From Mycoavidus cysteinexigens (GTDB lineage Bacteria > Pseudomonadota > Gammaproteobacteria > Burkholderiales > Burkholderiaceae): 64,000 nt of DNA. A program made the position numbers and the translations under genes. How positions within the stretch are numbered: position 1 is the first letter of the stretch; each line of letters starts with the position of its first letter. Below the pieces are notes generated by a model. It did not search any database and was not told where the DNA came from. It was given only the letters and a program-made list of their open reading frames with translations. The stretch is taken from contig JASSUH010000002.1 of the NCBI GenBank assembly GCA_031963445.1, positions 78,772 through 142,771 of the forward strand. Direction: 5' to 3'. Positions 20,986 through 45,868 of the stretch are shown here, piece by piece.

Positions 20986-20988
20986 CCT

Positions 20989-21104: not shown

Positions 21105-21124
21105 CACAAAGCCATCAAAGTACG

Positions 21125-21415
21125 GTGAATGCCCTGGGAAAGTGGGTTTCTTCGGGGAGTATCGGCCTGGCCGTAGTGCTTGCTGGGAGCGGCTTCCGCT
21201 TTCCGACGCTGTGGTTACCAACCCTATTAGGAACAGTCATAACGCTGATGATTCCGCTTAGCCTCTGTGTCTATCGGCAATGCTTAGACAGCACCATCAC
21301 ACAAGGGCAAGCAGAGCGCGATCACCTGCAACAGATGCACGCTACCGCCTTATCAGGGTCAGCGCATACGCCTCCGCCTTCTCCAACGCCATCTACGATC
21401 TACGGCTTTGCTTAG
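21125..21415 (+). CDS. Possible small membrane protein (GTG start)
   Basis: ORF with two hydrophobic segments. No other support. Confidence 0.2.
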   Translation: MNALGKWVSSGSIGLAVVLAGSGFRFPTLWLPTLLGTVITLMIPLSLCVYRQCLDSTITQGQAERDHLQQMHATALSGSAHTPPPSPTPSTIYGFA

Positions 21416-21619
21416 ATGCCATTTTAGGCGTGCCTATGGCGCGCTCTACTTCTTCCGTTTCTTTCTCAATTTTGAAAAATGATGTATTTAAAACCTACTA
21501 TTCAACGGACCTCTAAAACCACTGTCCCATAACGATAGCTTGTGCTTCGGTAAGTGACAGTGGATCGCTTATCACTTCACACTTCTGATTCACTAAAACT
21601 TCAAAATCAGGTATAAACA

Positions 21620-24448
21620 TCAACGTCGTTTTATATGTTCATTTAATGCGTTAAGAACTGCTTCGCTGACCTTCTCGTCTTTATCCTGTAGAGTAGAAGT
21701 CAAAACGGAAACAGCATCTGGAGATAGCGTTTCTTCTGCATTTAATATAGAAATAGCCCTCAACTTATCATTTTGATCGTATTCACTATCTTTTAAAATC
21801 TCAAGCAATACTTCCATACAAACTGTAGACAGCGTTGTATGCATGCCTAGTGCTATGGCAGCCTCAGCCTTCACTTCTTTATCTTCATCCTGTAGAACAT
21901 CCTCCAAGACGAAGAGTGCTGGCAGGGAGAGCTTCTCTTGACGGCCTAATACAGAGATAGCAGCGGCCCTAGACTTTGCCCACCCCTCATTTTCATTTTT
22001 TACAGCGTCCATCATTATTTGAATGCCAGTACTAGGTAGCGGTACTTTTTGATCGCTTAATGCTAGAGTGGCATTAAATTGCACGTCGTCGTCCTGATCC
22101 GTTAAAGCATCCTCCAAGACGGAGAGCGCTTGCGGGGGCAGTTCTTCTTGACGGCCTAATGCAGAGATTGCAGCAGCCCTAAACTCCGTCCACTCCTCAT
22201 TTTTATTTTTTACAACTTCCAGCAGCATTTGAATGCTAGTGCTAGGTAGCGGCACTTTTTGATCGGTTAATGCTAGAGCGGCGCTCAATTGCACTTCGTC
22301 GTCCTGATCTGCTAAAGCATCCTCAAAGAGGAAGAAAGCTTGCGGAGGAAGCGCCTCTTGATTGCCTAATATACGGATAGCAGTACCCCTAAACTCCGTC
22401 CACTCCTCATTTTTATTTTTTACAACGTCCATCATTATTTGAATGCCAGTACTAGGTAGCGGTACTTTTTGATCATTTAATATTACAGCGGCATTAAATT
22501 GCACTGTGTCGCTCTGATTCGCTAAAACATCTTTCAAAGCTCGAAGAGCCTCACCAGGCAGTTTTTTTCTATACAAGGTGGTTAGCTCATGTAATGCAAC
22601 GATGACTCTCATTCTATGATTATCATCATATTCATTATTTTTATTATCTAGAGCATCAATTAATATCTGAATACTAGCGCCAGACAGATATTCGTAGCGA
22701 CTCAATATTTCAGCAGCCCCAATTTTTACTGCTTTATCTTCATCCTGCAGAGCTTCCTCCAAGACGGAGAGCGCTTGCGGAGGGAGCTTCTCTTGATGGT
22801 TTAATACATGGACGGCAGCAGCTCTAGAATATGCCCTCCGTTCATTTTTATTTTTGACAATGTCAATCACTATTTGAACGCCAGTGCTAGGTAGCGGTAC
22901 TTTTTGCTGGGTTAATGCTATAGCGGCACTCAATTGCACTTCGTTGTTTTGATCTGCTAAAGCATCCTCCAAGACGGAGAGCGCTTGTGGGGGGAGTTTC
23001 TCTTGATAGCCTAATACAGAGATAGCAGTGGCCCTAAACTCTGTCCACCGTCTATTTTTATTTTTTATAACATCCACCATTATTTGAATACCAATGCTAG
23101 GTAGCGGTACTTTTTGCTTATTTAATATTAGAGCGACATTAAATTGCACTTTATCGTTCGGATCCGCTAAAGCATCTTTCGTAGCTCGGAGAGCATCATC
23201 AGGCAGTTTTTTTCCATACAAGGGCTTGGCTAGCTCATGTAATGCCTCGCTGGCTTCAATTCTACATTCGTCGTCATATTCATTATTCTTATTATCTAGA
23301 GCATCAATTAATAACTGAATATCATTATCAGAAAATTCTCTATTTATAATTAATTCCTTAGCCACTTCCATTCTCAGTATTCCGTGACTATTCTTTAAAG
23401 CAATTTTCAAAGCTAAGACCATTTCCTCTTTTACATTCTCCTCCATACTTAATACAACAATCGCTAAACGTCTATATGGAATTTTATATTCATTTTTTAA
23501 ATTTACTACCGCGTCAATTAATACCTGAAAACTGGCTGCACACTGCACTGTATTTCCATGGCTGTCAAAGGTAAAAGCTGCCGCAGCTCTCATTCTCACT
23601 AACGAATCTTTATCTTGTAAAGCAACCTCAAAAGCAAGCAGGATTTTCTCAGATAACTTACTTTGCCAGTCGCTTAGCTCACTTTGCAACTTGCTTAGTG
23701 TAGAGATTACGTTAACCCTATCATGCGTGTCATATGTTCCTTGCTCATTTACCAAAATATCAAGCAATGTTTTAATTATCGATTCGTCTAGTTTTTCATC
23801 TAGCATTTCTATTTTATTTAGTTTTTCATTTAATGTTTCATTTAGTTTTTCATTTAGTGTTTTAAATGGAATTGGCCATATAAATGAATCCAAAGCTATC
23901 TTTTTGGATTCATTTATATCTTTTTCTTTAGCTTCAAGCTTACTAGTGGTTGTCACTAAACTAGCTAACTTTCCTTGTATATTTTCAAGGCGAATTCTAA
24001 GAGCTTGTTTTTTTTCTAGGGCTTCAATTTTTTTTTGTCCGGCTTCTTGTTCCTTTTTTAATGCTTCATTCAAAGTATTACATTTTTCTTCTAAAGCGCC
24101 ACACGCTTTAGCCATAGACATAGTCATAGTGAATTGAAGTAACTTGGCTATATCACGCACAGAGCCTCTTGTATCTTCATCCGAAGTATCTGTCGCTTGG
24201 CCTACCGTTTCTTTTGCTGTATGGGATCGATTCGGTTTTAAAAACGTATCAAAAACCCATTCGTCTGTCATTTCTAGAATCTGGTCGTTATTTGCATCAT
24301 CATGCTGATCTTTGAGCATTCTTCTTTGCCCACTCATCAGCCCTTTCCAATTTTCGAGTTCTTTTTGGATATGAGATTGTTCACTACTCTGTATAACAGC
24401 CTGGTTAGAAAAACTTCTTGCCTGCCCTAAAGAATTTACTGGATTCAC
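21620..24448 (-). CDS. HEAT-repeat protein with N-terminal coiled coil; internal ~95-aa tandem super-repeats
   Basis: The unit LPPQALSVLEDALADQ..EVQ.SAA.AL..QKVPLPSTGIQI..D.VKNKNE... recurs about six times. It is preceded by a coiled-coil-like K/E/L-rich segment. Confidence 0.8.
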   Translation of the reverse strand: MNPVNSLGQARSFSNQAVIQSSEQSHIQKELENWKGLMSGQRRMLKDQHDDANNDQILEMTDEWVFDTFLKPNRSHTAKETVGQATDTSDEDTRGSVRDIAKLLQFTMTMSMAKACGALEEKCNTLNEALKKEQEAGQKKIEALEKKQALRIRLENIQGKLASLVTTTSKLEAKEKDINESKKIALDSFIWPIPFKTLNEKLNETLNEKLNKIEMLDEKLDESIIKTLLDILVNEQGTYDTHDRVNVISTLSKLQSELSDWQSKLSEKILLAFEVALQDKDSLVRMRAAAAFTFDSHGNTVQCAASFQVLIDAVVNLKNEYKIPYRRLAIVVLSMEENVKEEMVLALKIALKNSHGILRMEVAKELIINREFSDNDIQLLIDALDNKNNEYDDECRIEASEALHELAKPLYGKKLPDDALRATKDALADPNDKVQFNVALILNKQKVPLPSIGIQIMVDVIKNKNRRWTEFRATAISVLGYQEKLPPQALSVLEDALADQNNEVQLSAAIALTQQKVPLPSTGVQIVIDIVKNKNERRAYSRAAAVHVLNHQEKLPPQALSVLEEALQDEDKAVKIGAAEILSRYEYLSGASIQILIDALDNKNNEYDDNHRMRVIVALHELTTLYRKKLPGEALRALKDVLANQSDTVQFNAAVILNDQKVPLPSTGIQIMMDVVKNKNEEWTEFRGTAIRILGNQEALPPQAFFLFEDALADQDDEVQLSAALALTDQKVPLPSTSIQMLLEVVKNKNEEWTEFRAAAISALGRQEELPPQALSVLEDALTDQDDDVQFNATLALSDQKVPLPSTGIQIMMDAVKNENEGWAKSRAAAISVLGRQEKLSLPALFVLEDVLQDEDKEVKAEAAIALGMHTTLSTVCMEVLLEILKDSEYDQNDKLRAISILNAEETLSPDAVSVLTSTLQDKDEKVSEAVLNALNEHIKRR

Positions 24449-24697
24449 CTATTTCTCCTGTCTGATGCATTGAGGCCAGCTTGTTTAAGCAAGCATTTCC
24501 TACCCAAAGGCCTGCTTAATCCAATAGAGTTTTTACCATCCAGGACTTACCACGAGCATCCAGTACCTTACTGAAAACGCGGTCCCCCACGCCCGCCATT
24601 TTTGCGTGATGCACAATTTTTGATGCACAGCGATATTGGCACAAAGCCCGTGTTGCCAAGGTTTAACGTATAGAAGTGTAGAGAAAGTGATGCAGTT

Positions 24698-28741: not shown

Positions 28742-29551
28742 ATGTTACTAGATCATACATTAGATAGCGAAGTACATTCTTTATTTGACCATGTCTGTAT
28801 TAAAGAAATGATGGAAAAAAGGCAATTGAGATTGAATAGTTTTATTAAAATAATAGAAACATCAAAATTTAGAAAGGAAGGCTATAAAGAATCGTGTATT
28901 CCTTTTTATAGGGATTATACAAATTTAAATAACACGGGAAGAAGTTTTATAGGCTATAGATATCATGAGTATTTAGAAATTTCAGACGAAAATATGGGGC
29001 TAATAAAAAAAGATAACGACTGTAGCGGATGGTTATTTTTAATGGAAAAATCAGGCTTGTATCACTATATGGATAAAAAATCTAAGGAAGAGTGGGAGGG
29101 AATAATAAATAGAGGTGATTTTTTAGAGTTGAATTGTAAAAATATAGTAGATACTTTTAGGCCGTACTTTAATAATAAAGAAAAAATGTTTAATAGCAGT
29201 GTGTTAGATTTATTTAAAAGTATTTCTTGGGATAGGGAAAATAATAAACCTTTGGAAATAAAAAGAAAAATAATTACCTCTAGGAATGATGTATTGGATA
29301 ATTTAATTCGGATATTTTGTATTTTAAATAAAAAACCGCAATTAAATATTAATATGTACAGCGCTGTAAGGGCGGTATGTAGGAATGAGGGGGATAAGTG
29401 GGAGTGCGATGATTTCTTTATTCGTTGGTATAACAATGGAAACTACCATGTTATCTTTAAAGATAGTCCAAATTTAAAATTTAATGTTACATTAAAAAAT
29501 ATAAATAACATAGCAATGTCTGAGTACGCTAAAAATATTAACGATAAATAG
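28742..29551 (+). CDS. Hypothetical leading-region protein; paralog of 35904..36815 (possibly DUF4942-like)
   Basis: Shared W.FL.EKSG.Y.YMD.K....W.......DF...N.KNI...F. The C-terminal ...W.C..F.I.W..NGNYHV.F pattern recalls DUF4942 from memory only. Confidence 0.55.
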   Translation: MLLDHTLDSEVHSLFDHVCIKEMMEKRQLRLNSFIKIIETSKFRKEGYKESCIPFYRDYTNLNNTGRSFIGYRYHEYLEISDENMGLIKKDNDCSGWLFLMEKSGLYHYMDKKSKEEWEGIINRGDFLELNCKNIVDTFRPYFNNKEKMFNSSVLDLFKSISWDRENNKPLEIKRKIITSRNDVLDNLIRIFCILNKKPQLNINMYSAVRAVCRNEGDKWECDDFFIRWYNNGNYHVIFKDSPNLKFNVTLKNINNIAMSEYAKNINDK

Positions 29552-29573: not shown

Positions 29574-30716
29574 ATGAATAATATAAGAAAAATTCAGTAT
29601 TTTATCGAAGAGTTAAAGAGCAGAGACAAATATGTCAGACGTACAGCCGTACAAGCATTAGGCAAGCAAAAAACATTGCTCTCAAAGGCAATGGCATCTT
29701 TGACTTTTTCAATGCAAAAAGATGATTGTGAGTATGTTCGCGCTGAAGCAGCTTGGATATTAAGCAGACAAGAAACCGTACCTCTTGAAACGGTACTGGC
29801 CTTGGTCGCTTTGGTTAAAGATAAAAGCTCGTATATCAGGGATGTGGGAGCAACAATATTAAGCATAAAAAAAATGCTGCCAGATGAAGCCATTGCGGCG
29901 TTGATCTTTGCGATGGAGCATGAATATGAAGAGGTACGTTGGAGTGCTACCAGAGGATTAAGCGGGCAAAGAATGCTGCCCTATAAAGCGATCTTGGCTT
30001 TGATTTTTTCAATAACGAAAGAGGATGAGGATAGAGATGTCAGGATCGGAGCAGTCAAAGCATTGGCAAACCAAAAAGTTTTGCCTCCCCAGGCAATCTC
30101 AGTCTTGTTTTCTTTACTGATGAATAAAAAAGAAAAAGCAAAAGTTAGAGAAGAAATTGCTAAAGCATTACAAAACCAAAAAACACTGCCAGTCGAAATG
30201 ATTGAAACTTTAGTCTTGCTCATGATGAAAGAAGATGAAATCGCGATTATTCGTGAAACTGCTTATCAAATACTGGTTAGACAAAAAAAGCTTCCCCTCG
30301 AGATAGTTTTAAATTTGAACGATATCATGATGAAAAATGAGGGTAAGTATATTAGGATAATGATTGCTTCAATATTAAGTAGGCAAAAAATGTTGCCCAC
30401 AAAAATAATTCAAGACTTTATCCCTATAATATTAAATAAAGATGAAAATATATTTATTAGGCATGAAATTACTAACGCATTAAAGCATCAAAAAATGCTG
30501 CCTCCTGATACGATTTTAGCCTTATGTTCTGCAATTGAGGATAAGGAAGCAGAAAAAAATGTCAAATGGGATGCCATCCTTATATTAGGTGGACAGAGAA
30601 CGCTGCCTTACAATGTGATCTCCATTTTGGATATTGCAACGAAAAATAAAGATGGACACATTAGCAGAGCTGCCACTGAGGCATTAGCGGGAAGAGGCAG
30701 CGCTAGTGACGTGTAG
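29574..30716 (+). CDS. HEAT-repeat (PBS-lyase-type) protein
   Basis: About ten units of the type VR..A..AL..QK.LP.E.I..L...... Confidence 0.8.
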   Translation: MNNIRKIQYFIEELKSRDKYVRRTAVQALGKQKTLLSKAMASLTFSMQKDDCEYVRAEAAWILSRQETVPLETVLALVALVKDKSSYIRDVGATILSIKKMLPDEAIAALIFAMEHEYEEVRWSATRGLSGQRMLPYKAILALIFSITKEDEDRDVRIGAVKALANQKVLPPQAISVLFSLLMNKKEKAKVREEIAKALQNQKTLPVEMIETLVLLMMKEDEIAIIRETAYQILVRQKKLPLEIVLNLNDIMMKNEGKYIRIMIASILSRQKMLPTKIIQDFIPIILNKDENIFIRHEITNALKHQKMLPPDTILALCSAIEDKEAEKNVKWDAILILGGQRTLPYNVISILDIATKNKDGHISRAATEALAGRGSASDV

Positions 30717-30877: not shown

Positions 30878-33315
30878 GTCGGGTAGCAGCAACCCATTAC
30901 TGAGTCACCGCCCCCAAAGAACGTAACGTGCAACTTTCGCTGCATTACGCTCAGGTATAACAAAAGTCTCGTTCTGAGACCGGCTTCATGATTTTCAAAT
31001 CAAGGCTGTGGACTTGGGCATGGCAGGTGGGATGGAGCAATACTCGATTGCTAAGAGCATCGGTGCCACCATTCATACGGTATTCAATATGATGATCATG
31101 CCAGCCGGTGTCGATATCCATCTCGAACGCACAGAGCGCACACAGGCCTTTTTGAGCTACGTATAGCTTGGCCCACTGGTATCGATAGCCATTATTTTTC
31201 AACAGGCGCTCCTGCCGGATGGTCTCACCATACATTTCCCATTCAGGATCATACGGATGGTATGTGTTCCTGACTTTCTTGTGTCGCTTGATGGGCGTAC
31301 TAGAAAGAGAGTACAGCTCTATGAGTCTCTGACTGCTTTTCTCTCGTTCCATTTCTGCTGCAAACACCCAATGCCGATTACCGACTTCATGCCAATATTT
31401 CTGGCGTATCCATCGACGATTTTTGTTTGGGTGTCTGCGACATGCCCAGCGCCAGAGCAGTCCAAACAAAAGCGATGCTATACGGGAGAATGATTGCTTG
31501 GCACTGGCTGGACGATGGTATTGAGCCCAACCCCGCAGTATAGGATTTAGCAATCGGATTAAATTTGATTGCTTAGCCCCTAAATTGTCGTTGATGACGT
31601 TCCTGATCTTTTCATAGAATGCTTGTGCATTTTTCTTACTTGGCTTGATGAGCAGTTTTTCCGAGTATTTACGGAAATGCCACCCAAGGAAATCGAATCC
31701 TTCATAGATAGATACGATACGTGTTTTGCTTGGAGAGAGTCGCAATCCTCGCTGAGCAAGAAAAGCTTCAATCCACGGTTTGATCTCAGTTTCCAGCACT
31801 TCTTTTGAGTTGCAGGTCACCACAAAATCGTCGCAATAACGTACTACACCCACTTTCTGTTTCCGAGTTTGGCCTACACCCCATTTTCCTTTTAAATGAG
31901 CAATGAGCTGTACTTCCAAACCATTCAACGTCCAATTGGCTGCCGCTGGTGAAATGATTCCTCCTTGCGGGACCCCCGCGGTGGTCTTTTGCCATTGCCC
32001 TCGATCAATGACCCCAGATGCCAGCCACTTGCGTAGCATCGATTTGTCCATGCAGACATTGTCTAGCATCCAGTCTCTTGAAATTTGATCAAAGAAGCCT
32101 TCAATGTCCGCATCTAGCACCCATTTAGCTGAGTTCTTTTTAGCCATTAGGATGAAGATTTGTTCCATCGCATCAGCGGTACAGCGGTTTTTCCTAAATC
32201 CATATGAATTTGGATCACTCACTGATTCCAAAACCGGGTCTAGAGCTAGCAGATAGAGTGCCTGCATAGCCCTGTCGCTCATGGTGAGTATGCCCAATGG
32301 GCGTTCTTTCCCATTTGACTTTGGGATGTAAACCCTTCGTACAGGTGAGGGTTTATACCGCTGCTTCTTTAATTGGGTAATAGCAGTGAACTTTTTCTGT
32401 GATGTATCCCACAGTTCATTGTCCACACCAGCCGTTTTTTTACCTTGATTTTCAGTCACTCGTTTAACTGCTAATGCTTTCGCACTAAACGAGCGAGTTA
32501 GCATCCGTTGTAGCGCTTTCACGCGACGCCATTTGCCACTCTGTGATGCCTTCGTTAAGCGACGCTGTACCACTCTCACATTCGTTTGTACTCGCTTCCA
32601 GTCAATGGAAGTCCAGTCTGTAGGAGTGTGCGAGGACGCAGAACCGATTGAAAGACTGTCGGTTACTCTCATGCTTTTCCTCGAATAATCGAAACCAACC
32701 GATTACGTAAGTGGCCTCAGTGGCTTACGACTGTTATACCCCGCAGAAGTGGGCACTCTTTCGAGCTGGGACAAAGTTTGAATCCCTATCCAGCGCATTA
32801 CACGCCAACCTTCGCTTTTTCTGCGATCCTCTGCCCGCTCCACCAACAGCGTCCCTTGCGGGTTACCTGCCACCTCTGATGATCAGAGGAGTGGCGGTGA
32901 ATCGGGTTTACCGCGTTCCACGTCAATGACACGAGTAGGGTAGGTTCTGCCTATTTGCCGATGGTCTTGTGGGTCCGTGTATTCCTAGTCCGAAAAGAAA
33001 TAACCGATCATGTGCCTTTTGGCTCAAGCCTGTCAGCGCTTTTGGCTTGTTGATTGTGACGACATTTATTAGCAGTTCACTTATATTAACCTTATTACCC
33101 AGCCTAGCACCTCATCCGCCTTTGCGCTGGCAGATAGCACCTCCCACTCACGAGGGATGTGCCGCTCTTATGAGCAGGTTACATTGTCACGGCGGCTCCA
33201 CACAGGGCCGTTACCAACCCTGCATGCGCCGATAGGCTACGACTGACGGAACAGTCGGTTTCTCTATCTGCCGTTAGGCAGATGAAACAATCATTGACGC
33301 AACTTCGCGTCGCAC
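30878..33315 (-). mobile_element. Intact group II intron (about 2.44 kb)
   Basis: The minus strand begins GUGCGACGCG at 33315. Domain V GAGCGUAAUGCAGCGAAAGUUGCACGUUACGUUC lies at 30919-30952. The domain VI stem ends ...CUACCCGAC at 30878. Joining the flanks recreates the uninterrupted sequence of copy 4. Confidence 0.9.
30951..32672 (-). CDS. Group II intron-encoded protein (RT - maturase - HNH endonuclease)
   Basis: RT motifs including YCDDFVV, a maturase X region, and C-terminal CALC...HHIEY...GG.D...N..LLHP.CH..VH (HNH). Confidence 0.95.
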   Translation of the reverse strand: MRVTDSLSIGSASSHTPTDWTSIDWKRVQTNVRVVQRRLTKASQSGKWRRVKALQRMLTRSFSAKALAVKRVTENQGKKTAGVDNELWDTSQKKFTAITQLKKQRYKPSPVRRVYIPKSNGKERPLGILTMSDRAMQALYLLALDPVLESVSDPNSYGFRKNRCTADAMEQIFILMAKKNSAKWVLDADIEGFFDQISRDWMLDNVCMDKSMLRKWLASGVIDRGQWQKTTAGVPQGGIISPAAANWTLNGLEVQLIAHLKGKWGVGQTRKQKVGVVRYCDDFVVTCNSKEVLETEIKPWIEAFLAQRGLRLSPSKTRIVSIYEGFDFLGWHFRKYSEKLLIKPSKKNAQAFYEKIRNVINDNLGAKQSNLIRLLNPILRGWAQYHRPASAKQSFSRIASLLFGLLWRWACRRHPNKNRRWIRQKYWHEVGNRHWVFAAEMEREKSSQRLIELYSLSSTPIKRHKKVRNTYHPYDPEWEMYGETIRQERLLKNNGYRYQWAKLYVAQKGLCALCAFEMDIDTGWHDHHIEYRMNGGTDALSNRVLLHPTCHAQVHSLDLKIMKPVSERDFCYT

Positions 33316-35903: not shown

Positions 35904-36815
35904 ATGCTAGAAAATATGGAAATAGATGATAATTTTATTGGGTTAATTTCTTGCGATGAGATAAAAGAAATTTTAGATAAAAAAGACGAAGCATTAGAGA
36001 TTGCGGAAAAAGGCATGCATCTAATTGAATTATCAAATAAGATTTCTAATAAAATTAATACTGAAAATTATACTAATGGTATAAATGAAGATTTTGATTG
36101 TATTGGCTCTTTTAATCGCCTTAAATCTCTAGACAAGCAAAGCATGATGTGTGCATTAGAAAAAGATTGGAGCAAAAAGATATGGCAATTTTTAGCAGAA
36201 AAGTCTGGAATATATGATTATATGGATTCTAAGACATTCGGTGGATGGAGTAACAGGGTAAGTAACAATGATTTTCCTGATATTAATATTAAAAATATAA
36301 AAGAAATATTCAAAGAATATTTCTCTAGGTTAGAAATAATGATTGATGAGAATGTAATAAATTTGTTGCATTCTTTTAATTTTAAAAATCACCTCCCAGA
36401 AAAAATAATTATTAAAGATTTAATATATGATGATCCTTTTGAGCATAATTATAACGACGAAAAAGTAGATGACGAAGATGAATATTTTTATGTTGTAGGT
36501 GTGTCAAAAATAAATAAATTGTTAAATGTATGCTATATGTTGGATAATAAATTTAAAGAAAAATGTGATATAAAAAATAATTTGATCGAAACGTTAAAGT
36601 CCGGTGAGAATGAATGGAAATGTGAGTATATTACTGTTTCTTGGAAGCAAAGAGTAGGTTTTTTAAATATCACTGATAAATTAGTTTTTAAAAAAATAAC
36701 TGATATTATAAAAAAGAAAATTTCTGAAAAATTTGATGAGAATGAATATGATAAGATATTAGCGTTTGATGAGGAAGAGTATGGATATGATGGATATGAA
36801 AATGAAGTGCCATAA
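35904..36815 (+). CDS. Hypothetical leading-region protein; paralog of 28742..29551
   Basis: See 28742..29551. Very AT-rich, with an acidic C-terminus. Confidence 0.55.
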   Translation: MLENMEIDDNFIGLISCDEIKEILDKKDEALEIAEKGMHLIELSNKISNKINTENYTNGINEDFDCIGSFNRLKSLDKQSMMCALEKDWSKKIWQFLAEKSGIYDYMDSKTFGGWSNRVSNNDFPDINIKNIKEIFKEYFSRLEIMIDENVINLLHSFNFKNHLPEKIIIKDLIYDDPFEHNYNDEKVDDEDEYFYVVGVSKINKLLNVCYMLDNKFKEKCDIKNNLIETLKSGENEWKCEYITVSWKQRVGFLNITDKLVFKKITDIIKKKISEKFDENEYDKILAFDEEEYGYDGYENEVP

Positions 36816-37122: not shown

Positions 37123-37548
37123 ATGCCGAAGATAAAACGGATTAGAAAAAAGGATGATAATCGAGTGACGTTTCGGCTTGATGAAGATACACGGCAATTT
37201 TATAAAGCGGAGGCAGAGTCTCGTAATATCGATTTATCTGAATACATCCGTCAATCTGTGATGCGTGGCTTGATTAGTGATAATGCTGAAAAAATTCAAG
37301 AAAACTTTATATATATAACTTCTAAGTTTCTAGAAGAATTTATAGATACAGCTTCTAAGGTTCAAGAAAACGGGAAGAATGTACAAGCCGCTATTCCTGA
37401 TGAGGTAATACGATCTATTTTTACTATTGAAGAAATACTTAAAAAATTAGTATTAAGTGAGAATATACAAGCCTACTATAAAGTAAAAGATAATGCGCAA
37501 GCTAGGTTGGAAGAACTTAAAAGTGAATCAAATAGCGTGATTGAGTGA
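37123..37548 (+). CDS. Ribbon-helix-helix relaxosome accessory protein (TrwA/TraY/MobC-like)
   Basis: The N-terminal basic arm is followed by RVTFRLDEDTRQFYKAEAESRNIDLSEYIRQSV (RHH pattern). The gene lies immediately beside the oriT candidate. Confidence 0.6.
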   Translation: MPKIKRIRKKDDNRVTFRLDEDTRQFYKAEAESRNIDLSEYIRQSVMRGLISDNAEKIQENFIYITSKFLEEFIDTASKVQENGKNVQAAIPDEVIRSIFTIEEILKKLVLSENIQAYYKVKDNAQARLEELKSESNSVIE

Positions 37549-37567: not shown

Positions 37568-38650
37568 TTAGAAAATAAATTCTATCTCTTGATTTTTCTC
37601 ATTCTTTATACCTTTATAGCTAAATTGATGTGAGATTAAATTATTCCCTGCTAAGTAAATGAGTTCAATATTTGTTTTTGATGACCTTAATTTCTGCAGT
37701 AAAAAATGCATTCCAGAGGGATTTATGCAGTTATAACTTATATTTAAATTCTTTAAGTCTTTTCGTAAGGAGTGAATTATATTATATAAACCTAAGTCAC
37801 CTATTTGGTTATGACTTATATCTAAAGTCTCAATGGCAATATGTTTAATATAATCTGAAAAATGGATTGCTCTTTTTTCGCTCATGTTATTGTTACTTAA
37901 ATTTAATTTAATAATAGTTTTTTCTTTCAATGCCATGCCTAACTGATATATTGCTGAATCATTATTAATGTTACTATTTTTTAGGCTTAAGTAATGAATG
38001 GCATAAAGCTGTCTATTATTATCTAATGTCTGTGATAATTTCTCGGTAAATAGCTTGAAATTTGAAGAAAAAATGCTGTCAGCAATAATAGAAAGGCTTT
38101 CTATATTTGTTTTGCGAGACAATAAGTTAAGCACAAATAAATTTTTTCTTATCTTGCCTTTGCTAATGTCAATCGAAATATGCTTCGTTTTGCTCAAAAT
38201 AATTTTAATACCGTAGTAGGCTTGAGCATCATTAAAGCTGCTTTTGATATTGCAGATGGTTGATTTGCAGGTGTTTCTTTTGTTTCTGTCGTTGGCTGAT
38301 AGATTTTGATCTATAAATTTCTCATGCTCTTTTAATTTCTTTAAAAAATTTATATCGCTGCAAATTGAGCTATGGTATTTTGATTTTTTATAATATACGC
38401 TTTTTAAAAAATCATTGAGTCCTGAGTAAAATGCTTTGTTGACTCTTGATATGATATATAGTTGAGTTACGGATTTAATCGGCTCATAATTATGTATTAT
38501 GTAGATGAAAATTTTAAATATCAATTCTATCGGTAAGTCTAACTCTCTTTCGTGATGGTTATTTATACCGTCTTTTAATTTTGGTTGAAATGAAGAAGAA
38601 AGCAATGAAGGGTGCTGGCTTGAAGAGATATTGATAGAAGAAGAAAACAT
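37568..38650 (-). CDS. F-box + leucine-rich-repeat (RNI-type) protein; eukaryote-like effector candidate
   Basis: F-box-like LPIELIFKIFIYI...ISRVNKAFY. C-terminal LRRs (LNLSNNNMSEK.., LDISHNQIGDLG.., LNISYNCINPSG..). Confidence 0.75.
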   Translation of the reverse strand: MFSSSINISSSQHPSLLSSSFQPKLKDGINNHHERELDLPIELIFKIFIYIIHNYEPIKSVTQLYIISRVNKAFYSGLNDFLKSVYYKKSKYHSSICSDINFLKKLKEHEKFIDQNLSANDRNKRNTCKSTICNIKSSFNDAQAYYGIKIILSKTKHISIDISKGKIRKNLFVLNLLSRKTNIESLSIIADSIFSSNFKLFTEKLSQTLDNNRQLYAIHYLSLKNSNINNDSAIYQLGMALKEKTIIKLNLSNNNMSEKRAIHFSDYIKHIAIETLDISHNQIGDLGLYNIIHSLRKDLKNLNISYNCINPSGMHFLLQKLRSSKTNIELIYLAGNNLISHQFSYKGIKNEKNQEIEFIF

Positions 38651-38757
38651 GATTTATCTCGTCTTTAATTTTAGTTTTTTATATACAAATATCAGTAGCG
38701 TGTAATATATATGATTGAGATAAATCTATAGCAGAGAAATGCGGTTAAACGTGTCTT

Positions 38758-39990
38758 TTAAAGTAACAAACAATCATTATTGTTGTTGCTATGATTATAA
38801 GAATCATCCATTATAAAAGAATAATCATCAGCAGGAGAGTAATCTTCAGAAAAAGAGTCGGCTATCTCAAAAGGTGAGTTGGATTCATAATGATCAAACA
38901 GAAATTTAATAAATTCATTTTTCTTGTTTTCGATGCTTGCATAGCCGTTTAAAGAGCTAAGCTGCTTGATTTGACGCAAATCAATGCATTCAATTTCTGT
39001 TGGGCATGATCTTAGTTTTTCGAATATAAGTTGAACTCCGTATCGGTTAATATTATTTCCACTTAAATTTAAATGTTTTAAATCTTTTGGAATGGCACCA
39101 AGGATATATCGTAAGCCTTCATTGCTAATTCCTATATTGCTTAATTGTAAATTATCAATTTTTGTAGTCATAAGGTATTGAGCTAGAATAGGTGAAAATT
39201 CATCTGATATTTTATTGTTACTTAAATCTAATGTAGTTATATTTTTATTTATAATGGTTTGCCCAATAAGATGAATGGCTTCAAAACTATGTATTCCATT
39301 TCCTCTTAAACTTAGGTAATTAATTTTTGAAATGCTTTTATTGTTATCAATAATTAATTTAAGTTGACCTAAAAATTCTAATATATTTGTAGTAAAAAAA
39401 TTATCTGCAATAATTGAAATATTTTTTATATCAGTTCTTTTTGCTACAATTTTTATTGTATTTATGCTGTCATAGAACCAATTTTTATCAAAATTTATAT
39501 AAATATTTTTTGCTTTTTTTAACATAAAATTCCAGCTATTATCTATCTCATCGTCCCTATACCGGATGTTTGCAAATTTTCTAAATAGCTCACTGTATTT
39601 TTTTATATTGGCTTGAATAATTTCATGCCGAAATTCACTGCTTATATTATTTTCTATATTTTTCATCTCTTTAAGAAATGCAATATCCTTTTCTGCATTT
39701 TTTATATAATTTAGCGAAGAGATTTTTAAAAATCTTTTTGCGCTTTCGTAAAAAGATTTATTTATACGTTGTGCTATATTTAAATTGAATATGGACTTCA
39801 CAGATTCATAAGGTGTTACTAAAAAATAAAGGATTTTCTCTATTACTTCTTCTGGTAAATTGGGGACTAACTTGGAGCTAGGCGCTCTGTCTTTTTCTGT
39901 AGTAATTATTTTTTTATCTTCTGATAAGTTTGGATAAGTAGCTTGTAAGCCACGGTGGCTTTGAGAAGAGTGAATAGTGGTGGAAAACAT
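38758..39990 (-). CDS. F-box + leucine-rich-repeat (RNI-type) protein; paralog of 37568..38650
   Basis: LPEEVIEKILYFL...IAQRINKSFY, plus LRRs (LDLSNNKISDE.., LQLSNIGISNEG.., LNLSGNNINRYG..). Confidence 0.75.
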   Translation of the reverse strand: MFSTTIHSSQSHRGLQATYPNLSEDKKIITTEKDRAPSSKLVPNLPEEVIEKILYFLVTPYESVKSIFNLNIAQRINKSFYESAKRFLKISSLNYIKNAEKDIAFLKEMKNIENNISSEFRHEIIQANIKKYSELFRKFANIRYRDDEIDNSWNFMLKKAKNIYINFDKNWFYDSINTIKIVAKRTDIKNISIIADNFFTTNILEFLGQLKLIIDNNKSISKINYLSLRGNGIHSFEAIHLIGQTIINKNITTLDLSNNKISDEFSPILAQYLMTTKIDNLQLSNIGISNEGLRYILGAIPKDLKHLNLSGNNINRYGVQLIFEKLRSCPTEIECIDLRQIKQLSSLNGYASIENKKNEFIKFLFDHYESNSPFEIADSFSEDYSPADDYSFIMDDSYNHSNNNNDCLLL

Positions 39991-40137
39991 AACTAGCCTC
40001 GTTTTGATATCACATTACTTTATTAGAATAAATTGTAGAGAGAGATTATGAATGCGCATCTCAGTTTTTCAACTAATTTTTATGCCAATATAGAAGTCAA
40101 CCATTACATAAATTGAATAAAAAACTAAGGAGGGGGC

Positions 40138-41880
40138 GTGATAAAGCGTGATGGACGGGGAAATATAGGCAGTCTCTCACGTGGCACGGAACTGTGGCTC
40201 AATCAAGCTCGATTTTTTCTCGCCGCATTCAAAGCTATTTTGATAGTTGCTGTGCTGTCAGGTATATCAACTATCGGTATTTTTTCCTGGAAGACTATCA
40301 CGCCCAATGAACGCTATGCGGTAGAGCGCTATGTGCTTGCACAGGCGCTAGAGGGGTTGCCTATAGCGAACGATAAGATGGATTTAAATGTCAATGGACG
40401 TCTTTATCAGCTGGAAGCCAAGAAAGTCGTTTATTTGACAGAGCCAATGATCAATGAAGTACTGCAAAAACTTCAAAAGGCTTGTTTATGGGGACTATGC
40501 GCAGCGTTGGGCGCTGGATTGGTGGCTGCCTACTTGTGGTGGCGCTATGGCAAGCAAAAAATCACCGATAAACGATTGCGCGGGGCGCAATTAGTTAAAG
40601 GCGCGGAATTAACGAGCTTAATGCGCTCGCGCTCGGATGCTAGTCCTTACCTGATTGCAGGTGTACCCATGCGTCGTGATGCTGAAATGCTGCATAGTTT
40701 ATTTTGCGGCGCACCAGGTACAGGTAAGTCCCAACAATTTTTTGCCTTGATGCGGCAAATTCGTGCACGGGGTAAGCGCATGATTGTGTATGACCCAACC
40801 GGAGAATACACACAGGCTTTTTACCGCGAGGGCAAAGATATTCTGATGAACCCATTAGATGTTAGAAGCCCAAATTGGACTATTTGGCATGAAATTGAGA
40901 AGAACTACCACTTTGACAATATTGCCAGCGGGTTGATGCCTGATCCCATTAAAGATGACCCATTCTGGGTAAAAGCGGGGCGCATGGTGCTTAAAGAAGT
41001 CTTTCGGGCATTAGGCGAGGCAGGAAAGCGTACAAACGGAGATTTATATCAAGCCATTGCTAATAGCAATTTGCAAGAAATGTATACGTTATTGAAAGAT
41101 ACACCAGGCTCAACGTATGTTGATCCGCTCACTGAGCGTACAGGTATGTCAATCAAAATGACGGTGCAAAATCAATTGGAATCGTTTCGTTTTTTGCATG
41201 ATGAAGGCGAGCCTTTTTCAATTCGGCAGTGGGTACAAGAAGAGAGTGATACTTGGATGTTCATTACGGCCCGTGAATCGCTGCGTGAAGCGCTAAAACC
41301 TGTGCTTTCACTTTGGGTCGATATTGCGATTAAAGCAGTATTGGATCTGAGTCCGATTCACCAGGAGCGTCTTTGGTTTGCACTAGATGAATTACCAACG
41401 CTACAAAAGCTCGATATTTTGAAATTAGCGATCACAAATGGCCGAAAGTATGGCTTATGTTTCGCGTTGGGCATGCAAGACTTGCCTCAGCTTTACGCTA
41501 TTTACGGGCAAGAATTCGCTAAAACCATCATTTCAAGTTGCCAAACCAAATTATTGCTACGAGTGACAGATGGTGAAGCCGCTAAGATGATGTCAAAACT
41601 GATGGGGCAGGTAGAAGTCGATGAAAAAGAAGAAACGTTTAACTATGGTCTAAATAGCCATCGGGACGGGGTGAGTGTGTCAGCGCGCCGAGCGATGCGT
41701 GACATTGTTCTTCCTTCAGAAATTCTGACTTTGCCTGATATGGCAGGCTATTTAATGGCGCCTGGCGACTACCCGATAGCCAAGGTAAGTTACCCTTATG
41801 TACCTATACAAAAAATAGCAGAGGGATTCATCGAGCGCACTCAATTTGATGTGAATTTTGAATCAATGCTTGCTGTTTAA
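40138..41880 (+). CDS. traD: Type IV coupling protein (TraD/TrwB/VirD4 family)
   Basis: N-terminal TM helices, Walker A GAPGTGKSQ and Walker B WFALDELP. GTG start. Confidence 0.9.
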   Translation: MIKRDGRGNIGSLSRGTELWLNQARFFLAAFKAILIVAVLSGISTIGIFSWKTITPNERYAVERYVLAQALEGLPIANDKMDLNVNGRLYQLEAKKVVYLTEPMINEVLQKLQKACLWGLCAALGAGLVAAYLWWRYGKQKITDKRLRGAQLVKGAELTSLMRSRSDASPYLIAGVPMRRDAEMLHSLFCGAPGTGKSQQFFALMRQIRARGKRMIVYDPTGEYTQAFYREGKDILMNPLDVRSPNWTIWHEIEKNYHFDNIASGLMPDPIKDDPFWVKAGRMVLKEVFRALGEAGKRTNGDLYQAIANSNLQEMYTLLKDTPGSTYVDPLTERTGMSIKMTVQNQLESFRFLHDEGEPFSIRQWVQEESDTWMFITARESLREALKPVLSLWVDIAIKAVLDLSPIHQERLWFALDELPTLQKLDILKLAITNGRKYGLCFALGMQDLPQLYAIYGQEFAKTIISSCQTKLLLRVTDGEAAKMMSKLMGQVEVDEKEETFNYGLNSHRDGVSVSARRAMRDIVLPSEILTLPDMAGYLMAPGDYPIAKVSYPYVPIQKIAEGFIERTQFDVNFESMLAV

Positions 41881-41886: not shown

Positions 41887-42975
41887 GTGAAAGGTAATAA
41901 ACCAATGGCTACTGAAGTAAATTTAATTTCTTCTGCCGTCGAAGAACTGTTTCGGCAAGCTGAGGGCCATATAGATAAGGCCAGGCAAGCTGTTTCTCGC
42001 ACCATCGATACGGAAATGGTCAGTGCTTACTGGTGCATTGGTAGAGACATTGTTCACACAGAGCAAGAAGGGCAGGAACGCGCTACCTATGGGAGTGGCT
42101 TATTAACGGCTCTTTCTGAAAGACTTACTAAAAAATATGGTCGTGGATTTGGTATTTCTACGTTAAAAGACATTCGTCAATTTTATTTAACGTATTCGGA
42201 CTATTGTCCAATTCGCCACGCACTGCGTGGCGAATTAGAAACGCAACTGAGTGCTGGGTTAGGGTGGACTCACTATCGTGCGCTAATGCGTTTGGATCGG
42301 ACCGAAGCGCGGCAATTTTATGAAATCGAAGCGGAAAAAAATCGTTGGTCAGGTCGAGAATTAGAAAGGCAGATAGCGAGTTTATTGTTCGATCGTCTGG
42401 CAAAAAGCAAAGATAAAAGTGGTTTGATGCAATTGGCGCGCCAAGGACAAGAAATTACCAAAGCGGAAGATGCAATTAAAGAGCCGGTGGTGCTTGAATT
42501 TCTTAATCTGCCAGAATCTCACCGCTTAGTGGAGTCTGACCTTGAAGAGGCTTTAATCAATAACTTACAGCATTTTTTATTAGAGTTAGGTAAAGGTTTT
42601 GCTTTTGTTGCAAGGCAAAAGCGATTGTCGCTGGACGGAGACCATTTCTATGCCGACCTTGTTTTTTACCATGTTATTTTAAAGTGCTACGTCATCATAG
42701 ACCTTAAAACGAGAAAACTATCCCATGCTGATTTAGGGCAGATGCTTTTGTATGTGAATTATTTTGATAGAGAAGTCATTGCCAAAGATGATAACCCGAC
42801 CATTGGTTTAATTCTGTGCACGGAAAAAAGTGATGCTATGGTGAAATACACACTTGGCGATAAAAATAAACAGGTCTTTGCAAGTAAATATCAATTCCAT
42901 TTACCGACAGAAGAAGAGCTAGAGGCAGAACTCAAACGAGAAATGAGAGAAATAAAGCAAAAATTAGAAACGTAA
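41887..42975 (+). CDS. DUF1016/YhcG-family PD-(D/E)XK nuclease-like protein
   Basis: YWCIGRDIV...ATYGSGLL..LS..L...YGRGF....L...RQFY, and a C-terminal ...D..FYH..L.CYV.IDLK motif. Confidence 0.8.
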   Translation: MKGNKPMATEVNLISSAVEELFRQAEGHIDKARQAVSRTIDTEMVSAYWCIGRDIVHTEQEGQERATYGSGLLTALSERLTKKYGRGFGISTLKDIRQFYLTYSDYCPIRHALRGELETQLSAGLGWTHYRALMRLDRTEARQFYEIEAEKNRWSGRELERQIASLLFDRLAKSKDKSGLMQLARQGQEITKAEDAIKEPVVLEFLNLPESHRLVESDLEEALINNLQHFLLELGKGFAFVARQKRLSLDGDHFYADLVFYHVILKCYVIIDLKTRKLSHADLGQMLLYVNYFDREVIAKDDNPTIGLILCTEKSDAMVKYTLGDKNKQVFASKYQFHLPTEEELEAELKREMREIKQKLET

Positions 42976-43039: not shown

Positions 43040-45868
43040 ATGATTAGCCTAAATAATGTAGGAAGCGCAGGGCAGGCGCTGCATTATTTCTCAAAAGATA
43101 ATTACTACACAAAACAAGATGGCTTAGCGCATTCTGAGTGGTTTGGTAAAGGCGCAATACGCTTAGGTTTGACAGGGAAAATCGAGCAGCAGCCTTTCCT
43201 CAATCTCTTGCGCGGCAAAATAGAAAATCAGCAATTAGGAAAATGGGTCAGAAATCTTGAAACAGGCGAGAAAGAGCGTCAGCATCGACCAGGTATTGAT
43301 GTCACCTTTTCTGCACCTAAGAGCGTGTCGATTTTGGCAGAAATCTTTGGGCAACAGGATGTGCGAGAGGCCCACGAAGCAGCAGTTAAAGAAGCACTGA
43401 CTTATATTGAAAAAAATCTGATTGCGACGCGCATTACTCAGAACAGAGAGACCACAGTAGTAAAGACCAGCAATATGATGGTGAGCTTATTTCGCCACAA
43501 TACTAGCCGAGACTTAGATCCCCAAACGCATACGCATGCCGTCATTATGAACGCCACTTTATGCGAGGATGGGCAATGGCGCTCGTTGATGAACGATGAC
43601 ATTTACCGTGCGCAAGGCGTCATAGGGGCGATCTATACCTCTGCGCTGGCAGAAAAATTACAAACACTAGGTTACGCATTAGAACGCACGGATGCGCGTG
43701 GCAATTTTGAAATTGCAGGTGTTAATCATGAGCAACTTGCGCATTTCTCTCAAAGACGCGCACAAATCACTGCTGCGTTAGAGGCAAAGGGCATTTCCAT
43801 TCAAGAAGCCAGCGCGCAACAAAAAGAAGACGCCACGCTTAAAACTCGCTCCCATAAAAAATCCGTAGATCATGACGTTTTAATGGAGGAATGGCAAACA
43901 CGCGCCCAAAACATGGGAATCGATTTTCAATCCATTCAAGACAGAGCGCAATCCAATCAAAAAGAGCAGGTCTCAACCCGTGATAATCCGTTGACTGGCT
44001 TACAGGCCATGCAATTCGCTGTTGAGCATTTGGGTGAACGCGAAGCAGTATTTTCTCCGTTAGATTTAATGGAGACGGCTATCCAGCACAGTGTGGGCCG
44101 TACGTCTCCAGAGGATGTAGAGCAGGCTTTTGCACACTTGGAGGATATCGGGGAGCTAATTGCATTACCTAATGACCAATACACTACCAAACGCATGTTT
44201 CATAGCGAGAAGCGTACTCTCGACCAAATACTTGTGCAACAAGGACAAGTAGTTCAAATCATGACGCCAGAAACCGTAACAAAGCGGATTGTACTGGCAG
44301 AGCAGCAACAACGTATAACCTTCACACCAGGTCAAAAGGATGCAATTCGTCAAACGCTAGCAACGGAAGATCGGTACGTCGCTATACAGGGTTTAGCAGG
44401 AACGGGCAAAACCACCATGTTAAACGCGCTGCGGGAAATAGCGACTGAACAAGGCTATACCGTGCGCGGCATGACTCCTACGGGTGCGGCTAGTAAAGTT
44501 TTGGCGCTGTCTACAAAGATACATGCTGATACTGTCCATATGTTCCTCATCCGTGAAAAAAGGTTACAAAAGGATATCGACTTTGCTAAGCAGTACGCGC
44601 CTCATTTTGTGCGAAAAAGTGAATTGTGGATTATCGATGAAAGTTCTTTTTTGTCGCAGTATCAAAAAGAGGCGATTGATAAGACTGCGTTAAAAGCAGG
44701 GGCGAGAGTTGTATACGTTGGCGATATGTTGCAGTTGCAGGCCGTAGAGGCCGGTAAGCCTTTTGAGTTGGCACAAAAAAACGGTATCGAAACGGCCTAT
44801 ATGACAGAAATAAGCCGACAAAAAAGCAAAACCTTAAAGCGAGCGGTGGATATCGTAGTCGGTCGGGATCAATTACAAGAAGGACAGCGTTTAACTCAGA
44901 TTGAATTGAATCGTAATACGCATGCTTTTTCCTATATGGATAAAGTCGGTATGGTCTATGAAGTGGAATCAGAGTTAATAAAGGCGGTCGCTAATTGTTA
45001 TCTCAATTTGGAACCTGCAAAACGAGAGCGCACGATTGTATTTACCGCTTTTAATAAAGATAGAGTAGAGATCAATGAAGGAATACGTGAAGGGTTAAAA
45101 GAATTGGGGGAGTTGGCGTCGCACGAAAAAAAATGTGAAATCCTGGTCTCCAAAGGCTGGACACGAGCCAAGATTAAAGAAGCCCAATATTACACAAAAG
45201 GCGATGTGGTGCGCTTTGGCCGTGATTACAAAAGTATGAATATTAAAAAGGGCGAATATGCACGTGTATATTCTGTCATTGAGAAATCAGGTTCCCTTGT
45301 ACTGCAAAAATCAGATAATAAAGCGCTTACTTGGACACTTCGGAAGCATAATAAGCTTGAAGTGTACGACGCTGAAACCCGCCCTCTGGCCGTTGGGGAC
45401 TTAATCCGTTTTACCCGAAATGGGGAAGTATGTAAAAACGGAGAAGTTGCGCGTGTGAAAAACATAACTGACCAAAAAGCCTCTCTAGAGCTTTGCCGAG
45501 ATGCAGCCCCCTCTTTATATGAAGTGGATCTCTCAAAGTCCTGTCATTGGGATCACGCATACGCCGTCACCGTTCATAGTGCGCAGGGAAGTACCCAGGA
45601 GCGAGCTATTTTTCATATTGATATCAAGCAAGATGAAAAACGCTCGGAAAAAGCGGAATTAGCGCAAATGGCAAAAATATTTGGCGCACGTAGTTTTTAC
45701 GTTGGCGTGACGCGAGCAAGCCATGCGTTAAGGATTTATACGAATGACAAAGAAAAAGCAGAAAAAGCAATCTGTGCTCGTCTAGATAAGACTAGCGTAA
45801 TAGAGACTATGCAAAATCATGAGAAAACACGGACCTCTATACAGAAGCAACAAGGGATGAATAGATAA
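43040..45868 (+). CDS. traI: MOBF relaxase-helicase (TrwC/TraI family)
   Basis: The N-terminus is colinear with my recollection of TrwC (A..YF...NYY.K......W.GKGA..LGL.G; DVTFSAPKSVS; FRHNTSRDLDPQTHTHAVIMN). Helicase Walker A is GLAGTGKTT. Confidence 0.92.
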   Translation: MISLNNVGSAGQALHYFSKDNYYTKQDGLAHSEWFGKGAIRLGLTGKIEQQPFLNLLRGKIENQQLGKWVRNLETGEKERQHRPGIDVTFSAPKSVSILAEIFGQQDVREAHEAAVKEALTYIEKNLIATRITQNRETTVVKTSNMMVSLFRHNTSRDLDPQTHTHAVIMNATLCEDGQWRSLMNDDIYRAQGVIGAIYTSALAEKLQTLGYALERTDARGNFEIAGVNHEQLAHFSQRRAQITAALEAKGISIQEASAQQKEDATLKTRSHKKSVDHDVLMEEWQTRAQNMGIDFQSIQDRAQSNQKEQVSTRDNPLTGLQAMQFAVEHLGEREAVFSPLDLMETAIQHSVGRTSPEDVEQAFAHLEDIGELIALPNDQYTTKRMFHSEKRTLDQILVQQGQVVQIMTPETVTKRIVLAEQQQRITFTPGQKDAIRQTLATEDRYVAIQGLAGTGKTTMLNALREIATEQGYTVRGMTPTGAASKVLALSTKIHADTVHMFLIREKRLQKDIDFAKQYAPHFVRKSELWIIDESSFLSQYQKEAIDKTALKAGARVVYVGDMLQLQAVEAGKPFELAQKNGIETAYMTEISRQKSKTLKRAVDIVVGRDQLQEGQRLTQIELNRNTHAFSYMDKVGMVYEVESELIKAVANCYLNLEPAKRERTIVFTAFNKDRVEINEGIREGLKELGELASHEKKCEILVSKGWTRAKIKEAQYYTKGDVVRFGRDYKSMNIKKGEYARVYSVIEKSGSLVLQKSDNKALTWTLRKHNKLEVYDAETRPLAVGDLIRFTRNGEVCKNGEVARVKNITDQKASLELCRDAAPSLYEVDLSKSCHWDHAYAVTVHSAQGSTQERAIFHIDIKQDEKRSEKAELAQMAKIFGARSFYVGVTRASHALRIYTNDKEKAEKAICARLDKTSVIETMQNHEKTRTSIQKQQGMNR

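Follow-up and report, generated by a model that had tools for sequence, protein, structure and literature searches.

Tandem genes for candidate F-box/leucine-rich-repeat proteins at the trwA-trwB junction of a conjugative transfer module in Mycoavidus

The genome of the endofungal bacterium Mycoavidus cysteinexigens, which belongs to a genus of endosymbionts of Mortierella fungi, contains two adjacent genes, here called A and B, whose products combine C-terminal leucine-rich repeats (LRRs) of the ribonuclease-inhibitor (RI or RNI) type with an N-terminal domain that is probably a divergent F-box. Both genes are found in a stretch of 64,000 nucleotides, referred to below as the window, which corresponds to bases 78772-142771 of contig C2 (JASSUH010000002.1, assembly GCA_031963445.1; 192 kb, 43.8% GC); the genome amounts to 2.93 Mb, of which 2.64 Mb belong to the main contig, C1 (45.9% GC). 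In the window, A and B are wedged, on the opposite strand, between the genes for a TrwA-like relaxosome accessory protein and a TrwB-type type IV coupling protein (T4CP) of a MOBF conjugative DNA-transfer (Dtr) module. The reading that we favour, and hold with moderate confidence, is that A and B are exported mimics of the substrate adaptors of Skp1-Cul1-F-box (SCF) ubiquitin ligases, carried as conserved cargo of the Dtr module; we infer their secretion and its route, the binding of Skp1, the ubiquitination of targets and prenylation. Every testable element of the overall interpretation offered in a preliminary description of this DNA survived the analysis.

The two open reading frames (ORFs) were found exactly where the preliminary description had placed them, on the minus strand (Table 1), and both are intact. 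They are paralogous but clearly diverged, as had been stated; their products share 32% identity over about 360 residues, that is, over the whole common length (BLASTP, E 1e-45). Since no public source names proteins of the A/B family or assigns them a Pfam domain, it appears that searches at curated thresholds overlook them.

The C-terminal halves of A and B are unambiguously LRRs of the RNI type, in agreement with the earlier claim. A profile made from 11 members of the family matched, in PDB, the mouse ribonuclease inhibitor with an E value of 9.5e-30 and also the LRRs of NLRP proteins, as well as the Ralstonia GALA structure 9j7j (E 2.9e-23, over the LRRs) and Legionella LegL1 (4xa9). With Pfam, the single window proteins gave weak LRR_6 and LRR_1 matches, and LRR_6 was detected in 10 of the 11 family members with a best E value of 9.5e-10. 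The AlphaFold2 model of A, which has a predicted local distance difference test score (pLDDT) of 70 overall, includes seven beta-alpha repeats with a pLDDT above 90; their strands are located at residues 162, 190, 222, 250, 277, 306 and 335, and the spacing between repeats is of 27-32 residues, mostly 27-29. When the whole model was used as a Foldseek query, CARMIL, NLRX1, NLRPs and RI were retrieved at a probability of 1.00. Membership of the GALA family is not indicated by these repeats, given that the GAxALA motif is absent and the spacing differs from the 24 residues of GALA proteins; the likeness to 9j7j is generic to LRRs.

The evidence on the N-terminal domain comes from remote homology and predicted structure. 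The motif from which an F-box had been proposed is present in both proteins (A, LPEEVIEKILYFL...RINKSFYE; B, LPIELIFKIFIYI...RVNKAFYS) and is kept in about 25 family members, the LP-x-E-hydrophobic signature of helix 1 being the best-conserved stretch of the family. In a one-by-one scan of 19 paralogues, limited to their N-terminal 70 residues, PF12937 was the family most often matched (6 of 19, best E 6e-4), followed by PF00646 (4 members) and PF15966 (1 member). A profile of the N-terminal domains of the family was aligned by hhalign to 13 PF12937 domains of the same genome with a probability of 95.6% (P 1.2e-8), and to only the five of the genome's F-box domains that exceed the Pfam cut-off with 89.7%; the controls reached 0.5% for a reversed template and at most 4.8% in 20 column shuffles. 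In addition, a hidden Markov model of this domain, run against all 3076 ORFs, gave weak hits to about 45 ORFs outside the family; in 10 of these the hit coincided with a Pfam F-box site, against about 0.3 expected (about 30-fold enrichment). In the full AlphaFold2 model of A, helices are predicted at residues 47-57, 63-73 and 78-87, and a separate model of the 64-residue domain, based on a 22-sequence alignment (pLDDT 80.6), shows four helices (9-19, 25-35, 40-53 and 57-63), a pattern that equals that of an F-box plus one extra C-terminal helix. A Foldseek search of BFVD with this domain model gave giant-virus proteins named as F-box proteins in about 20 of the top 37 hits, with TM-scores of up to 0.61 and E values of only 0.3-4; most of the other matches were Pandoravirus ankyrin or MORN proteins. 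The hhalign alignment also revealed an insertion of eight residues between helices 1 and 2, which is the conserved PYxPIES loop. From these comparisons of sequence and predicted fold, the N-terminal domain of A and B is most probably a divergent F-box.

The family to which A and B belong was detected by whole-genome searches in all six Mycoavidus genomes and in none of 34 genomes from other genera of the family and order, and each Mycoavidus genome holds many paralogues. An exhaustive HMMER search of 1.84 billion representatives gave, among the top 150 matches (which reach down to about 197 bits), full-length matches to Mycoavidus family members only, the rest, largely giant LRR proteins, matching over the LRRs alone. 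A word-indexed search with the family alignment returned Mycoavidus proteins and LRR-only matches and nothing else, and the same type of search with protein A alone returned no match, protein A itself included. The preliminary description had raised the case of close homologues being widespread in free-living bacteria; none of the full-length relatives retrieved came from a free-living bacterium, and all belong to the endosymbiont genus Mycoavidus. Thus the family, as far as these sequence searches reach, was found only there and is expanded in the genus.

The position of the pair inside a conjugative transfer module, already noticed in the preliminary description, is borne out by the flanking genes, which encode the TrwA-like protein, the T4CP, a YhcG nuclease and the TrwC relaxase; C2 also encodes a VirB4-family ATPase. 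A megablast comparison of the 10-kb region with plasmids gave no match. The closest plasmids outside the genus are Mycetohabitans pBRH02 and the Pandoraea plasmid CP015372, whose T4CPs are 63-65% identical to that of the window. In these trwA-trwB-trwC Dtr operons of the R388 type the flanking genes are orthologous to those of the window, and the trwA-like gene (30-32% identity) directly abuts the T4CP gene, with no insert; in contrast, most Mycoavidus modules have one or two F-box/LRR genes between them, on the opposite strand. Including the window, the insert was found at this junction in six loci of four Mycoavidus genomes. The other five are contigs 10 and 52 of genome G002, the 109-kb replicon C2 of G006 and two chromosomal sites of G005, one of which shows the A-then-B tandem as in the window. 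These junction copies keep the conserved residues of the F-box and of the LRR scaffold across the four genomes, at 44-57% identity.

In the family tree all the junction-linked copies group together; the A clade comprises five rows with a support of 100 in the SH-like approximate likelihood-ratio test (SH-aLRT), and the B clade is formed by B of the window and the second gene of the G005 tandem (support 99). Given that both types occur in the window and in G005, the duplication predates the split of these lineages. The preliminary description had proposed acquisition followed by duplication; the duplication is upheld, and is old, with both types in tandem in a second species, whereas for acquisition from a eukaryote no full-length eukaryotic relative was seen. 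The outgroup-rooted T4CP tree is congruent with the tree of the A-type genes, with the window joined to G006 and the two G002 copies joined to each other. A second MOBF module is located in contig C3 (71 kb) of the same genome, at 17500-24500, with the order DUF4942, trwA-like, T4CP and trwC; its T4CP and relaxase are 78% and 68% identical to those of the window, it has neither the F-box/LRR insert nor the YhcG gene, and only 59 bp separate trwA from the T4CP gene, as in an internal empty site. The C3 T4CP nests inside the insert-bearing clade (support 91/94), and the simplest history is one ancestral insertion followed by loss on C3, a history that two gains equal by event count. In the orthologous module of G006 C2 the T4CP gene and trwC stand side by side with no YhcG gene between them, so that YhcG represents a separate and later insertion in the window module.

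The two chromosomal sites of G005 are informative in another respect. At the tandem site the T4CP gene beside the pair now consists of two pieces, of 133 and 86 residues, and at the other site the T4CP is a remnant of 72 residues; nevertheless, the F-box/LRR ORFs beside them (374, 382 and 396 residues) are intact. It follows that these genes are maintained for something besides conjugation.

As the preliminary description had indicated, A and B are much more AT-rich than the flanking transfer genes, with GC fractions of 0.273 and 0.280, whereas the T4CP gene is at 0.453 and trwC at 0.447; among the 1327 ORFs with 250 residues or more (mean 0.467) they fall within the lowest 0.3-0.5%. Their GC at the third codon position is also low (0.21-0.30 versus 0.43); hence the AT bias exceeds what amino-acid composition alone would give. 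The remaining paralogues of the window genome are all within the lowest 3% in GC, and low GC is therefore a trait of the family and not of the A/B locus alone. Recent acquisition from the present host was considered and not adopted, because low GC is common to all the paralogues and no full-length eukaryotic relative was found; to our knowledge, a GC content of 27% is unlike that of the present fungal host. The most AT-rich long ORFs of the genome are the leading-region DUF4942 genes (window 35904-36815 and 28742-29551; C3:23572-27007), with GC fractions of 0.24-0.28, below those of the F-box/LRR genes.

The same region is present in a JGI metagenome (3300053491, contig Ga0557493_052295, 91 kb; L047), where A is split into three ORFs and B is cut to 336 residues. 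Over 2.4 kb this contig differs from the window by four homopolymer-length indels and no substitution; for this reason pseudogenisation, which the 133-residue A and the 336-residue B of the contig might suggest, was rejected, and the indels are probably an assembly error rather than decay.

The ends of the proteins contain further features that bear on export and localization. The leaders of A and B are disordered and conserved among orthologues; they have 32-40% Ser/Thr in their first 25 residues (32% in A), the first acidic residue does not appear before positions 24-27, and a pattern MF.T.IHSSS.H is common to A and its orthologues; such a Ser-rich, acid-free leader is suggestive of a candidate type III secretion signal. 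At the other end, A alone has an acidic disordered tail of 45 residues that terminates in CLLL, a CaaX box in which X is Leu. Among the ORFs of at least 250 residues only three have a strict CaaX box: A, a 2663-residue ankyrin protein and an 1852-residue protein with ARM and WD40 repeats. All three are eukaryote-like; given that proteins of this class make up roughly 50 of the 1327 long ORFs, the probability of such an outcome is estimated, post hoc, at about 6e-5. The terminal C-x-I-L of the ankyrin protein recurs at 7 loci in 5 species, whereas the residues that precede it vary. The conservation of this terminus, together with the occurrence of CaaX boxes among long eukaryote-like ORFs, makes host prenylation of effectors plausible; from their sequences the ankyrin and ARM/WD40 proteins are probable host-prenylated effectors, and by analogy it is plausible that A would be geranylgeranylated by the host.

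The following mechanism can be proposed. From inside Mortierella-type hyphae the bacterium would export A and B to the fungal cytosol, most probably by one of its two type III systems and through the Ser-rich, acid-free leader. There the F-box would dock on fungal Skp1, and hence on Cul1-Rbx1, while the LRR arc would pick fungal proteins for ubiquitination; the CLLL terminus of A (CaaL) would be geranylgeranylated by the host, and the ligase adaptor would in this way be tethered to a membrane, as is Legionella AnkB. As for the origin of the locus, a single ancestral gene would have entered the space between trwA and the T4CP gene of a MOBF module, on the strand opposite to theirs, probably at a time before the sampled Mycoavidus lineages separated; it has since co-diverged with the module, was duplicated into A and B before the window lineage and G005 split, and spreads with the plasmid.

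Several results weigh against this mechanism, most of them at the F-box step. The PF12937 scores of A and B, 12.7 and 14.1 bits, are below the cut-off of 24.3, and the Pfam F-box models PF00646, PF12937 and PF15966 gave no match at E<=1 with full-length A and B; the Pfam search that the preliminary description had suggested bears out the LRRs and leaves the F-box under the curated cut-off, and a plain profile search alone would say that there is none. The family N-terminal profile retrieved no F-box chain from the PDB sequences, a Foldseek search of PDB with the 64-residue model returned nothing significant and no F-box, and none of the BFVD matches is significant individually. The PYxPIES insertion occupies the loop beside the Skp1-contacting helix and, to judge from the sequence, may affect the predicted binding of Skp1; moreover, there are F-box proteins of Legionella that do not associate with SCF (PMC7830128). 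With respect to prenylation, the CaaX box of A is missing from B and from the orthologues of A, and the 5 strict CaaX boxes among the 3076 ORFs do not exceed the number expected by chance (2.9 +/- 1.8). From the results on the F-box it could be argued that A and B are exported LRR binders that sequester or scaffold host proteins without SCF, their N-terminal helical domain being a secretion-chaperone or other docking module and not a working F-box. We regard this as rather unlikely, since the profile-profile alignment, the enrichment of weak hits and the BFVD fold all point specifically to an F-box, since the helix-1 signature is what the family conserves best, and since bona fide F-boxes abound elsewhere in the genome. 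The earlier F-box claim is probable at the level of remote homology, and not at that of a Pfam assignment.

Even with a working F-box, the route of export could be another. Agrobacterium VirF is a plasmid-borne F-box protein that travels through VirB/VirD4, and in a similar manner A and B could be recruited by the adjacent T4CP and injected into the fungal cytoplasm, or into recipient bacteria, by the conjugative type IV secretion system (T4SS) of the plasmid. An F-box/LRR gene does stand beside the T4CP gene in every insert-bearing module, the VirB4-family ATPase of C2 would fit such a system, and the export of F-box proteins by T4SSs has precedent, including the Dot/Icm F-box effectors of Legionella (PMC7830128). 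This route is nevertheless improbable in our view: the F-box/LRR genes are intact where the T4CP gene has decayed, the chromosomal paralogues of the family are not beside any T4SS gene, the C-termini of A and B are devoid of an Arg-rich signal of the VirB/D4 type, and the related plasmids are typed as MPF_F, that is, as ordinary conjugation systems. The extreme low GC of A and B, and the fact that the C3 module does without genes of this type, could also lead one to see them as AT-rich selfish or decaying cargo, or as genes with a plasmid function inside bacteria, such as anti-defence or establishment in the recipient. We consider this highly improbable, for the ORFs are intact with conserved scaffold residues in four genomes, the duplication was retained in two lineages, A and B are transcribed opposite to the direction of the transfer genes and persist after conjugation genes decay, and a combination of LRRs, F-box and CaaX has no plausible bacterial target. 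Exported SCF-adaptor mimicry therefore continues to be the reading that we prefer.

Mimics of this kind have counterparts in well-described systems. The preliminary description had taken Legionella and Coxiella as the main bacterial parallel; instead, the closest described analogue of A and B was found in the GALA proteins of Ralstonia solanacearum. These type III effectors come, as A and B do, from the Burkholderiaceae and have an N-terminal F-box followed by LRRs of the RNI-like superfamily, and they are believed to take the place of the F-box proteins of the host in SCF complexes. The two groups differ in the type of repeat, as described above, in the eight-residue loop insertion and the failure of A and B at the Pfam cut-off, in the host, which is a fungus and not a plant, and in gene context, A and B being embedded in a conjugative Dtr operon; beyond the LRRs the two groups showed no relationship in sequence. 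Legionella pneumophila AnkB, like LegU1 and MavK, is an F-box effector that binds host Skp1, and the host attaches a lipid to its C-terminal CaaX box, which anchors the effector in a membrane (PMC7830128, PMC2790608). By analogy, copy A would share with AnkB the logic that leads from F-box to CaaX; however, the substrate domain of AnkB consists of ankyrin repeats and that of A of LRRs (the genome also has F-box plus ankyrin ORFs), the terminal Leu of A predicts geranylgeranylation and not farnesylation, and the organism has no system of the Legionella Dot/Icm kind.

The gene neighbourhood recalls that of VirF, an F-box protein encoded on a conjugative/virulence plasmid beside T4SS genes and exported to a eukaryotic host; VirF, however, has no LRR and carries an Arg-rich C-terminal T4SS signal. 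Eukaryotic FBXL proteins such as Skp2, FBXL3 and TIR1 show the same order of F-box, helical linker and LRR arc as A and B, with the difference that their repeats contain cysteines and measure about 26 residues, whereas those of A and B are of the RI type; among the 50 matches listed for the full model of A in Foldseek, RI, NLR and CARMIL came first and no FBXL was present. Mycoavidus cysteinexigens, as its name and description indicate, is a cysteine auxotroph, as is Legionella, and by analogy a role of the A/B effectors in amino-acid supply is conceivable.

A and B are part of a broad eukaryote-like repertoire. F-box-like domains (PF12937, E<=1e-3) number 4-16 per genome in the six Mycoavidus genomes and none in 14 control genomes. 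The window genome has at least five such domains above the Pfam cut-off and about 16 at E<0.03, and several of the F-box-like ORFs of C1 also bear ankyrin repeats, an architecture like that of AnkB. The genome also contains ORFs with ankyrin (about 21) or WD40 repeats (about 11), as well as two type III secretion secretins. Horizontal transfer has been reported as a possibility for NLR-type helical domains of Mortierella found in Mycoavidus (PMC9815663). In the open literature no paper was found that joins Mycoavidus, or endofungal or endohyphal bacteria, with F-box proteins, nor one on the expansion of F-box-like domains across Mycoavidus; neither LRRs nor ubiquitin are mentioned in a paper on the comparative genomics of M. 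cysteinexigens (PMC5877345), and TAL-like proteins are the only effector family described in Burkholderia-related endobacteria (PMC11261895).

The features discussed are collected in Table 1, where the promoter and ribosome-binding sites upstream of A are consensus matches only. In the window, very large ORFs with ARM/WD40 and HEAT repeats are located at 2765-7648, 14203-18273, 18237-19697, 21620-24448 and 29574-30716. Pairs of WD40 matches with identical scores were seen at C2:93286-94812 and C2:184031-185557, and at C2:7267-8667 and C2:85214-86615, which implies that C2 contains large duplicated segments. A 573-residue ORF at 140-1861 on the minus strand is equal in length to the group II intron reverse transcriptase at 30951-32672 (RVT_1, GIIM, HNH) but unrelated to it; its assignment as a second enzyme of this type was rejected, as it matches no Pfam family.

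Table 1. Position of the A/B genes, their domains and related features (window coordinates, except those on contig C1)
Feature	Position	Strand	Description	Basis
trwA/NikA-like gene	37123..37548	+	ribbon-helix-helix relaxosome accessory protein	PF21983, 28 bits
Gene B	37568..38650	-	360 aa; architecture of A minus the tail	LRR_6 match
Gene B LRRs	about 37646-38188	-		LRR_6
Gene B F-box-like domain	about 38399-38539	-	aa 38-84	PF12937 at the motif
Gene A	38758..39990	-	410 aa; Ser/Thr-rich disordered leader, F-box-like domain, helical linker, seven RI-type LRRs, acidic tail ending in CaaX	ORF, family alignment, AlphaFold2, PDB profile match
Gene A CaaX box CLLL	38761-38772	-	C-terminus of the protein	
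Gene A acidic disordered tail	38761..38892	-	residues 367-410; absent from B and all orthologues	pLDDT about 30
Gene A LRRs	38971..39513	-	residues 160-340; seven ribonuclease-inhibitor-type repeats	
Gene A predicted divergent F-box	39721..39861	-	residues 44-90; LP-x-E-hydrophobic helix 1, extended PYxP(I/V)(K/E)S loop, helices 2 and 3	
Gene A leader	39868..39990	-	residues 1-41	pLDDT below 50
Divergent intergenic region, A / T4CP gene	39991..40137	.	sigma-70-like site 40072-40045 (minus strand); GAGG ribosome-binding site before the ATG of A	
TrwB-type T4CP gene	40138..41880	+		PF10412, E 1.6e-121
YhcG/DUF1016 nuclease gene	41887-42975		between T4CP and relaxase genes	
TrwC (MOBF) relaxase-helicase gene	43040..45868	+		PF08751, E 6e-85
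F-box-like domains on C1 (examples)	1505786-1505893, 1327503-1327613, 2023063-2023182, 1694481-1694573, 2259823-2259915			PF12937 scan
2663-aa ankyrin-repeat protein (L045)	C1:1957503-1965494		ends CVIL	
1852-aa ARM+WD40 protein (L046)	C1:1695611-1701169		ends CLIL	

Bacterial F-box effectors are already known, including those that combine the F-box with LRRs (GALA) or with a CaaX box (AnkB). What is new here is a family that is cryptic to Pfam, with an inserted loop and RI-type repeats, its setting in an endofungal bacterium, and its conserved, co-diverging position in the trwA-trwB junction together with its survival after the decay of transfer genes. In a bolder version, which we consider improbable, A and B would be substrates of the adjacent T4CP, as in the case of VirF, and the conjugative T4SS of this endofungal bacterium would also serve to inject ubiquitin-ligase mimics into the fungus; the effector gene would be fixed in an essential trwA-trwB junction, and Mycoavidus would run a large and hitherto undescribed arsenal of F-box, ankyrin, WD40 and CaaX proteins directed at fungal ubiquitination and prenylation; if this were true, each transfer event would hand the recipient endosymbiont a tool for host manipulation. 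How bacteria that live in fungal hyphae control their hosts is largely unknown, and A and B are concrete candidates for such a role. They would also represent an unusual way of keeping and spreading an effector gene, one that is wedged in a core DNA-transfer operon and that outlives the operon after its capture by the chromosome.

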